A DNA stretch of 64,000 nucleotides, from the NCBI RefSeq assembly GCF_054482595.1, contig NZ_CM137008.1. One strand, given 5' to 3'. Made by a program: the position numbers and the translations under genes. The notes beneath the pieces were generated by a model. That model saw nothing but the letters and a program-made list of their open reading frames with translations. It had not been told where the DNA came from and did no database searches. This document shows, piece after piece, positions 50,589 through 51,683 of the stretch (its first letter is position 1; each line of letters starts with the position of its first letter).

Positions 50589-50876
50589 GGATTACGTACC
50601 TCCCGGTTTTGCCGGGAGTTACATGGCCTGAAATTTTGTATTTCATTGCTACATTCATTCAAACCACCTGTAACAAAAAGCTGCCTTTGACGATCTATTG
50701 CTATAAATAAGTGATCTTTTTTCTTTAATTGTTTATTTATTTTAAAATGGTTAAGTTTTGCTAATCATGATGAGCTATTTTTGATAGTTCATCCTGTGGC
50801 GTCGCTCTTAAACTTATATTGTAAATGACTTAGATTTAAATGAGATAATAATTTTGTTAACAATATGAGGCGGGAG

Positions 50877-51680
50877 ATGTTTTCTACAAACTTAATACAG
50901 AGTAATTATGGTGATTTAAATATTAAAAGCCTGGCTTTCGACTCTTTTAAAGAAAGGCTGCAGTCTACCATGGCGGCACTCACTTTCTTTATATCAACGG
51001 GTCAATGTGACTGCGATGAAATAGAAGAATCAAATTTTAATTATATGATTGCCTATATGTCTAACATTAACTATGATGCCTCAAAGCCAGGAGCGCCAGC
51101 ACTTAGTTTTGATACATATCTGCAGGACAATGTTAAATATAGAGTAATAATTAATAATCTTTATGGTAGTGAAATTCGGATAAGAGGTATAAATAAAGAT
51201 TTTATTGGAATGGATGTTACTTCTGTATTTCGCCCAGAAAAAATGACCAATTTGATCAGTATAAAAAACAGGTTGGTTATTCACTATTTAAGGACTATAT
51301 ACTATGAACAAAATTATATACATCCTGTCGGGAGCATTTTTGCTGCGATTCAAAAAAATGAGAGTCTCCTAAAGTTTCCTTCGATAATATCAATGCTTAA
51401 TATCAATCTTCTTTTTAATCCACTAAATCTTCCGGGAATGGGAAGTGGTATACTTGAAGATATTATGAGTATTCCAGATAGTTCACTTAGAAAACGTCTC
51501 GGGTATGAGGTTTTAAGCTTCTCGCTACAGGCACATTCATTGAGCCAGGAATGTATTGATAAGTTGGACATTTTTTTCGCTGACGATCTGTTTAAATATG
51601 AGTCAGTATGCATCGCCGCGATGGAACATTTAAAAAGTAAGGCAACGGCCCCTATACAAAACGGACCGTTGCCAGCATAA
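50877..51680 (+). CDS. ydjO: Uncharacterised protein YdjO, in AT-rich DNA
   Basis: Start placed at MFSTNLIQSNYG (267 aa); the gene and its upstream region are visibly AT-rich compared with neighbours (composition not computed). Confidence 0.75.
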   Translation: MFSTNLIQSNYGDLNIKSLAFDSFKERLQSTMAALTFFISTGQCDCDEIEESNFNYMIAYMSNINYDASKPGAPALSFDTYLQDNVKYRVIINNLYGSEIRIRGINKDFIGMDVTSVFRPEKMTNLISIKNRLVIHYLRTIYYEQNYIHPVGSIFAAIQKNESLLKFPSIISMLNINLLFNPLNLPGMGSGILEDIMSIPDSSLRKRLGYEVLSFSLQAHSLSQECIDKLDIFFADDLFKYESVCIAAMEHLKSKATAPIQNGPLPA

Positions 51681-51683
51681 GAA

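Follow-up and report, generated by a model that had tools for sequence, protein, structure and literature searches.

The 64,000-nt window analyzed here (RefSeq assembly GCF_054482595.1, contig NZ_CM137008.1) derives from an E. coli chromosome and contains the convergent gene pair ydjO and tcyP (also named ydjN). The combined evidence makes it probable that ydjO, an AT-rich ORFan found only in Escherichia, was inserted between cedA and tcyP and displaced a terminator that these two genes had shared, and that tcyP transcription still ends at a hairpin located inside the ydjO coding sequence (CDS). According to this model, ydjO and its upstream spacer would have replaced a short ancestral cedA/tcyP spacer bearing a bidirectional intrinsic terminator, and termination would now be split in ydjO-bearing genomes. 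The cedA transcript would end at a new hairpin, a predicted terminator, and the tcyP transcript would end at a strong hairpin and U-tract that are co-encoded with the last ~18 ydjO codons. Transcription of ydjO itself would be lowered by H-NS at the spacer, a published promoter island at which silencing is presumed from binding, and would be cut further by Rho within the open reading frame (ORF). With H-NS and intragenic Rho termination acting on ydjO, convergent read-through into tcyP would be small in wild-type cells.

The gene order in the window is katE (47881-50142, - strand), cedA (50325-50588, + strand; NCBIfam equivalog NF007510, E 3e-56), ydjO (50877-51680, + strand), tcyP (51684-53075, - strand) and ydjM (- strand). 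Over 50300-51900, the sequence matches strain XH990 at 100% identity and K-12 derivatives at 99.0%. The ydjO gene, supported by its ORF and the annotation, encodes a product of 267 aa from the RefSeq start; initiation at an in-frame ATG at 50865 would lengthen it to 271 aa. The tcyP gene, supported by its ORF and the RefSeq annotation, encodes a cystine/sulfocysteine:cation symporter and shares 89-99% amino acid identity across Enterobacteriaceae. The TAA stop codon of ydjO (51678-51680) and the stop codon of tcyP (51684-51686, TTA on the + strand) are separated by the trinucleotide GAA (51681-51683), which, judged from the sequence and the allele comparison, would lie approximately at the right end of the segment that took the place of the ancestral spacer. 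The same 3-bp spacing is present in three diverged ydjO alleles (L002, L059 and L061).

A terminator for tcyP was identified within the ydjO coding end. On the tcyP strand (-), an inverted repeat (I1) that is also supported by folding spans 51641-51673 and forms the stem-loop GGCAACGGUCC ... GGGGCCGUUGCC. Its 11-bp stem begins 11 nt past the tcyP stop codon on the same strand, and the U-rich tail UUACUUUUUAAAUGU (51626-51640) lies directly 3' of the stem. The fold has a predicted free energy of -22.4 kcal/mol (z -4.55 vs dinucleotide shuffles), with 1 of 200 shuffles equally stable. The terminator consensus scan calls this site on the tcyP strand via a shorter inner stem, and the inverted-repeat search recovers the full stem. 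The stem-loop is co-encoded with ydjO codons 255-266, and the whole element, stem plus U-tract, falls within codons 250-267, approximately the 18 last codons of the gene.

Published transcript data place a tcyP 3' end in this U-tract. Term-seq in M63 glucose (Adams et al., 2021; PMC7815308, supplementary file 1) reported a 3' end at MG1655 1812373(+), classified as 'primary: tcyP; antisense: ydjO', with TAATTCTTATGCTGGCAACGGTCCGTTTTGTATAGGGGCCGTTGCCTTACT on its upstream side and TTTTAAATGT on its downstream side. Coordinates were converted from the MG1655 annotation (tcyP 1810934-1812325, ydjO 1812329-1813132), and this 3' end corresponds to window position 51636, within ...GGGGCCGUUGCCUUACU, which is 48 nt beyond the tcyP stop codon and 5 nt beyond the stem. 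The overlap of tcyP RNA with ydjO is therefore limited to the final 45 nt of the gene. A search of a second 3'-end data set (PMC12207403) returned no tcyP entries, and no in vitro termination assay of this terminator was found in the literature.

The terminator is conserved among divergent alleles. No change is seen in either stem arm or in the U-tract among four diverged ydjO alleles, including alleles whose N-terminal halves differ at a synonymous divergence (dS) of ~0.8, or in two loci in which ydjO has been destroyed, one by deletion (L005) and one by an insertion sequence, IS1 (L003). These two loci keep the terminal ~70 bp including the hairpin and the U-tract, with two loop bases differing in one of them. 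The survival of the element in both destroyed loci, two cases in total, fits with selection to maintain tcyP termination.

Transcription of ydjO appears to be limited both at its promoter region and within the gene. The cedA-ydjO spacer (50589-50876) has a GC content of 0.33 and is listed as 1811053_320 ydjO/cedA, one of 78 K-12 promoter islands (Panyukov and Ozoline, 2013; PMC3661553, Table 1). As relayed by PMC3661553, this spacer is bound by H-NS in the chromatin immunoprecipitation (ChIP) data of Kahramanoglou and of Oshima. Genomic systematic evolution of ligands by exponential enrichment (SELEX) found RpoD holoenzyme bound in the spacer, together with an H-NS site (PMC3946193). The consensus scan found a sigma-70 promoter-like site, ATGACT-16-AATAAT (50825-50852, + strand), upstream of ydjO, and the same hexamers form the best promoter of the spacer, given as the constitutive RpoD promoter of ydjO, according to genomic SELEX (PMC3946193). 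Promoter-like sites in 50100-52100 are not enriched relative to dinucleotide shuffles (4 found, 3.7 expected). The top sigma-70-like match of the region, TAGACA-18-TAAAAT (10/12; 51063-51034, - strand), lies within ydjO, antisense and directed toward cedA, and is of the intragenic promoter kind typical of AT-rich DNA. H-NS filaments may also help Rho at ydjO.

A Rho termination region annotated 'internal: ydjO' was reported at MG1655 1812645(-), which corresponds to window position ~51364 (DirectRNA-seq with and without bicyclomycin; PMC7815308, supplementary file 2). Across this region, ydjO-strand coverage goes from 83 down to 10 in untreated cells and from 80 down to 42 in bicyclomycin-treated cells, giving a Rho score of 4.36 and a p value of 4.9e-5 (PMC7815308). 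Given the 800-nt windows used in that analysis, the nearness of this coordinate to an A7 tract in ydjO is probably a coincidence. The loss of signal within the gene implies that little ydjO transcription reaches tcyP in wild-type cells. The same study lists a Rho termination region on the tcyP strand in LB, at MG1655 1810978 (window position ~53031), 44 nt into the tcyP ORF, where coverage changes from 48 to 32 without bicyclomycin and from 146 to 324 with it (PMC7815308), which suggests Rho-dependent attenuation of uninduced tcyP.

Downstream of ydjO, the + strand offers no comparable signal. After the same stem it reads AGCAUAAGAAUUAAUGG, which contains no U-tract, and the scan found no terminator-like site for ydjO on this strand up to 52100. 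The + strand fold of the stem (-19.8 to -23 kcal/mol, z -1.5 to -1.9) is no better than that of shuffled sequences. The present ydjO/tcyP element thus does not have the form of a bidirectional terminator, in which an A-tract 5' and a U-tract 3' of one hairpin let each strand read hairpin plus U-tract; the ancestral spacers of ~45 species (see below) do have this form. On these features ydjO is predicted to be without an intrinsic terminator of its own. RNA that escapes Rho would then meet no other stop, and this flux is expected to be small in wild-type cells.

An alternative explanation is that the hairpin at 51641-51673 acts as a bidirectional terminator, or as a collision site like those of Ju et al. 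(2019), and ends both transcripts, so that the ydjO mRNA stops at the ydjO stop codon. The + strand can form the same stem, a 3' end 7-9 nt past it would fall at 51680-51682, just beyond the ydjO stop codon, the ancestral element of this junction (see below) worked both ways, and collision-assisted termination is known at convergent pairs (bioRxiv 10.1101/2022.10.23.513370). However, the + strand tail has no U-tract, the scan is positive on the - strand only, and the + strand fold is not distinguished from shuffles. The Term-seq tables of PMC7815308 report a 3' end on the tcyP strand and none on the ydjO strand, although ydjO is weakly expressed and the absence is uninformative. Weak expression also bears on the collision variant, since gene pairs with low expression are reported to show less efficient collision (bioRxiv 10.1101/2022.10.23.513370). 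We consider this alternative unlikely.

The sequence-only reading held that there was no terminator and no room for one, so that transcription would necessarily run from each gene into its partner, with possible antisense interference. As a full model, the gene ends would contain no terminator within or between them, tcyP and ydjO transcription would extend far into each other, and ydjO would exert antisense or collision control on tcyP. The 3-bp separation of the two stop codons is correct, the + strand downstream of ydjO indeed lacks a terminator-like site, an expression study names ydjN and ydjO together among its serum-responsive genes (PMC4145685), and the rise in downstream ydjO-strand coverage from 10 to 42 upon bicyclomycin treatment shows that antisense transcription into tcyP is physically possible. 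The absence of a terminator, however, is contradicted by the 11-bp stem and U-tract on the tcyP strand and by the primary 3' end mapped within that U-tract, 48 nt past the stop codon. Nor must the genes read into each other, as tcyP RNA ends 45 nt into ydjO, and ydjO-strand RNA drops in a Rho-dependent manner within ydjO in untreated cells, with H-NS bound at the ydjO promoter region. Mutual read-through in wild-type cells is thus largely refuted by the published 3'-end data, and this explanation has little chance of being correct. Antisense interference, which had been put forward as a possibility, would be possible only upon relief of H-NS or Rho control.

A 3-bp convergent gap is not unusual for this window. 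Four of its nine convergent pairs have a gap of at most 8 bp or overlap: ynjH/nudG (-35; overlap at 22314-22348), ves/cho (-41; 39809-39849), ynjF/ynjE (8; 23428-23437) and ydjO/tcyP (3). Convergent pairs of the window are therefore likely to have shared termination signals, or signals embedded in coding sequence, quite commonly.

The composition of ydjO sets it apart from its neighbors. The GC content is 0.31-0.37 over 50600-51650 and approximately 0.50 in the flanks, and the stretch 50589-51683 (GC 0.342) is the minimum among all 1.1-kb stretches of the window. For gene-level statistics, RefSeq gene models of XH990 were mapped onto the window, yielding 60 intact CDSs. The ydjO gene has the lowest GC content of all 60 (0.348, z -3.69; remaining genes 0.500 +/- 0.041), the lowest GC content at third codon positions (GC3, 0.310 vs 0.522 +/- 0.059, z -3.61) and the lowest at first codon positions (GC1, 0.407, z -2.81). 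Its codon-usage index, computed with the remaining window genes as reference, is 0.608 (z -2.65) and ranks second lowest after espL1. These values bear out the earlier statement that ydjO and its upstream region are conspicuously AT-rich. The same reading took this composition as typical of DNA that is horizontally acquired and H-NS-silenced. The foreign origin is supported by composition and distribution, and, as relayed by PMC3661553, both Nakamura et al. and Lawrence and Ochman predicted genes at this promoter island to be foreign. H-NS binding at the spacer is likewise published, and silencing is presumed from it. The annotated type III effector gene espL1 (59017-60915) is the second most AT-rich CDS of the window (GC 0.394) with the lowest codon-usage index (0.607), and is likely another acquired gene.

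No YdjO relatives were detected outside Escherichia in 5.8 billion clustered proteins or in 1.84 billion representatives, and sequence searches of Pfam, NCBIfam, PHROGs, PADLOC and the PDB assigned YdjO to no family. The AlphaFold2 (AF2) model is moderately confident, with a predicted local distance difference test (pLDDT) score of 62.5, and its structural neighbors are unconvincing. The last ten residues, which are encoded by the terminator element, are predicted to be disordered in this model (tail KATAPIQNGPLPA). An apparent homologue of 27% identity from an exhaustive HMMER search (P0034) was rejected as the product of an A/G-swapped contig of this same E. coli locus. Its source contig (L004, Logan SRR33321306) corresponds to window 50274-52315, with 585 A>G and 451 G>A changes and 11 purines unchanged. 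A divergent copy was found in the E. albertii type strain (NBRC 107761; L007 4427-4822), where an ORF of 38-39% identity occupies the same position, adjoining a CedA of 92% identity, and the contig ends inside it. In the search for a fuller E. albertii copy, the protein search returned one 79-aa fragment and the metagenome DNA scan nothing.

Intact ydjO alleles show the signature of purifying selection. The ratio of nonsynonymous to synonymous divergence (dN/dS) ranges from 0.18 to 0.27 and is significantly below 1 in both gene halves (Fisher p 2e-11 and 7e-7), compared with 0.02-0.05 for tcyP, and the 267-codon frame is retained in an allele of 76% identity. Synonymous divergence reaches 0.46 over the whole gene and 0.8-0.9 in codons 1-160, and is 0.02-0.11 in the flanking genes.

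The gene is also frequently decayed. Allele comparison identified two frameshift sites on the + strand, an A7 homopolymer at 51357-51363 (codons 161-163) and a T7 homopolymer at 51565-51571. Among the genomes examined, an A7 to A8 slip in O111:H8 truncates YdjO at ~161 aa and a T7 to T6 slip is present in O157:H7; both are annotated as pseudogenes in RefSeq. A cluster of 165-aa truncated YdjO proteins (P0011) contains 2273 member sequences, and a second cluster (P0012) is also truncated. A 12-bp direct repeat, TGACGATCT(A/G)TT (repeat family D4, + strand), has its left copy at 50688-50699 and its right copy at 51581-51592. In Escherichia sp. MOD1-EC7003 (L005), the junction sequence places the deletion of ydjO between these copies, and recombination of the two copies would explain it. 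Strain ES4 carries an IS1-associated ydjO truncation (L003).

These observations can be set against the possibility that ydjO is a chance ORF in AT-rich junk that encodes no functional protein, with selection acting on the embedded tcyP terminator only. This would fit the lack of any non-Escherichia homologue, family or fold match, the modest pLDDT of 62.5, the absence of ydjO from 21% of E. coli genomes, the frameshifts in O157:H7 and O111:H8, and the large truncated cluster. It is nevertheless opposed by dN/dS values significantly below 1 in each gene half, by the exact 267-codon length held between alleles at 76% identity and by the long frame that is open in the E. albertii copy. Moreover, an 800-bp ORF would be improbable by chance at 35% GC because stop codons are AT-rich. 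This possibility therefore seems improbable, and ydjO is probably a real gene, yet a dispensable one.

To examine the origin of the present arrangement, a single genome from each GTDB species was scanned with CedA, which returned 54 loci. The synteny katE-cedA-tcyP-ydjM is found wherever the flanks are on the contig, including in Citrobacter, Salmonella, Enterobacter, Kluyvera, Leclercia, Atlantibacter and others. No ydjO is present at the cedA/tcyP junction in ~45 non-Escherichia Enterobacteriaceae species or in several Escherichia lineages. In ydjO-less species, the cedA-tcyP spacer is mostly 45-100 bp and carries a bidirectional terminator composed of an A-tract, a GC hairpin and a T-tract, with motifs such as AAAAAAACCGCC...GGCGGTTTTTTT and, as an Enterobacter example, ATAAAAAAACCGCCCTCAGGCGGTTTTTTTAT. 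A version of this terminator, AAAAAACGCCTGTCGGGATGACAGGCGTTTT, is kept in E. whittamii, in three other Escherichia representatives and in ydjO-less E. coli (SK1144, ST131). In those ydjO-less Escherichia, cedA has the ancestral ending ...NEVEE before the stop codon, whereas the ydjO haplotype ends in GEVTE (last six codons, from 50570).

Comparison of a ydjO-bearing with a ydjO-less allele (L001, empty site at 1775-1850) shows that homology ends at 50569, within cedA and six codons short of its stop, and restarts at the tcyP stop codon. By this alignment, ~1.1 kb would have taken the place of ~60 bp that included the shared terminator. A deletion cannot recreate the ancestral terminator; the empty site is therefore ancestral and ydjO is an insertion. 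The two states coexist in E. coli. In a census of 5426 complete E. coli genomes, the ydjO sequence is present in 4297 and the site is empty in 1124 (21%), including O25b:H4-ST131 and avian pathogenic E. coli (APEC) strains. That ydjO was instead ancestral at this junction in Enterobacteriaceae and repeatedly lost is extremely improbable, because although deletions do happen, as in L005 (direct-repeat recombination) and L003 (IS1), the known ones retain ydjO remnants and the ydjO-type hairpin, and the empty Escherichia alleles share both the terminator and the cedA ending with Leclercia, Enterobacter and Citrobacter, among others.

With the shared terminator displaced by the insertion, cedA may have gained a substitute. 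A hairpin with a weak U-tail follows the cedA stop codon (50596-50622, + strand; core CCUCCCGG-UUU-GCCGGGAG at 50600-50618). The fold of 50585-50660 is -23.6 kcal/mol (z -3.61), and none of 200 shuffles was as good. This hairpin is a putative replacement terminator for cedA. No cedA 3' end was found in the PMC7815308 maps. A search for known RNA families in 50100-52000 gave a lone match far under threshold, to a C. elegans snoRNA family, which is attributed to chance.

The boundaries of the insertion carry no repeats, no tRNA genes occur in 47000-55000, and ydjO is the only ORF of the segment. No integrase, transposase or other mobile-element signature was detected in the segment, and PHROG and PADLOC also returned no family. 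Additional DNA was observed at this junction in other genomes. In Siccibacter colletis, a 905-bp insertion at the same cedA/tcyP junction (L052 ~4230-5140) encodes an apparent HigB-type toxin and helix-turn-helix (HTH) antitoxin pair, as called by eye. Extra segments of 140-330 bp are present at this junction elsewhere (among L049, L038, L055 and L014).

Several points weigh against the proposed insertion and split termination. With no mobile-element signatures flanking the segment, horizontal acquisition is deduced from distribution and composition. The U-tract of the tcyP terminator is not ideal, being interrupted by AC (UUACUUUUU), and the tcyP 3' end was reported in one of three Term-seq conditions, namely M63 (PMC7815308). 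The bicyclomycin data that bear on Rho come from LB, in which tcyP is poorly expressed, and the Rho coordinate in ydjO derives from 800-nt windows and low read counts (PMC7815308). Leak-through could perhaps explain why the serum-responsive list holds ydjN and ydjO together (PMC4145685). Support for H-NS consists of published binding, from which silencing of ydjO is presumed, and no value for ydjO expression in an hns mutant was found in the searchable papers.

The features of this junction were compared with those of known systems. Like the H-NS-silenced xenogeneic genes and promoter islands of K-12 (PMC3661553), ydjO combines an AT-rich gene and spacer, H-NS binding, a restricted taxonomic range and intragenic Rho termination. 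Rather than a multi-gene island, ydjO represents one ORF in ~1.1 kb of DNA that lacks an integrase, a tRNA, an IS and flanking repeats, and no donor or homologue was found for it. The tcyP element resembles intrinsic terminators embedded in the 3' coding sequence of a convergent neighbor: it has a GC-rich 11-bp stem and a U-rich tail with a mapped RNA 3' end, and it is positioned just past the tcyP stop codon. It differs in that it overlaps ydjO codons 250-267, so that the same DNA also encodes a predicted disordered YdjO tail. The ancestral cedA/tcyP spacer corresponds exactly to the bidirectional terminators of convergent pairs in Ju et al. (2019; summarized in bioRxiv 10.1101/2022.10.23.513370), and the present hairpin also sits at a convergent junction. 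In contrast to that kind, the present element is asymmetric, with a U-tract on the tcyP strand only, and its ancestor has been lost. YdjO has also been grouped with YahL and YjfZ as E. coli/Shigella 'conserved signature proteins' (PMC11057252). It is indeed restricted to Escherichia/Shigella in protein libraries of as many as 15 billion sequences, but it is not universal, as 1124/5426 genomes are without ydjO and the E. albertii copy shares 38-39% identity, and it is not detectably related to YahL or YjfZ, BLASTP showing no paralogy.

The composition, H-NS and 3'-end facts for K-12 are already in the literature, and all parts of the arrangement are of known kinds. The additions made here are modest. 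They concern the direction and limits of the insertion event, the bidirectional terminator that was lost, the DNA that doubles as terminator and YdjO tail, the absence of a marker gene from 21% of genomes and the diverged E. albertii copy. A tiny convergent gap does not imply a missing terminator, because the terminator can sit in the coding end of the neighbor. The junction would also provide a natural example of an insertion that destroys a shared bidirectional terminator and supplies a one-sided replacement for tcyP. A published proposal uses YdjO as a universal quantitative PCR (qPCR) marker for E. coli/Shigella (PMC11057252), and the ~21% of complete E. coli genomes without ydjO, ST131 included, is relevant to water-quality assays.

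A more speculative extension, to which we assign a low probability, is that ydjO is a fast-evolving 'conflict' gene maintained throughout Escherichia as an old polymorphism, both of presence/absence and of alleles, and that its arrival also rewired the 3' untranslated region (UTR) and terminator of tcyP. The coexistence of empty and ydjO-bearing sites in E. coli, the N-terminal dS of ~0.8 and the 38-39% identity of the E. albertii copy point in this direction. If this were true, K-12 (ydjO-bearing) and ST131 (ydjO-less) might differ in tcyP mRNA 3' processing or stability, and also in convergent interference once H-NS or Rho control is lifted.

Elsewhere in the window, two differences from XH990 were observed in the ast (arginine succinyltransferase) operon. 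The astC gene carries a CAG>TAG nonsense change at codon 193 (32774-32776), and astD carries a 34-bp duplication flanked by CGTTGCTGAC (35512-35545). The operon therefore looks inactivated in the source genome.

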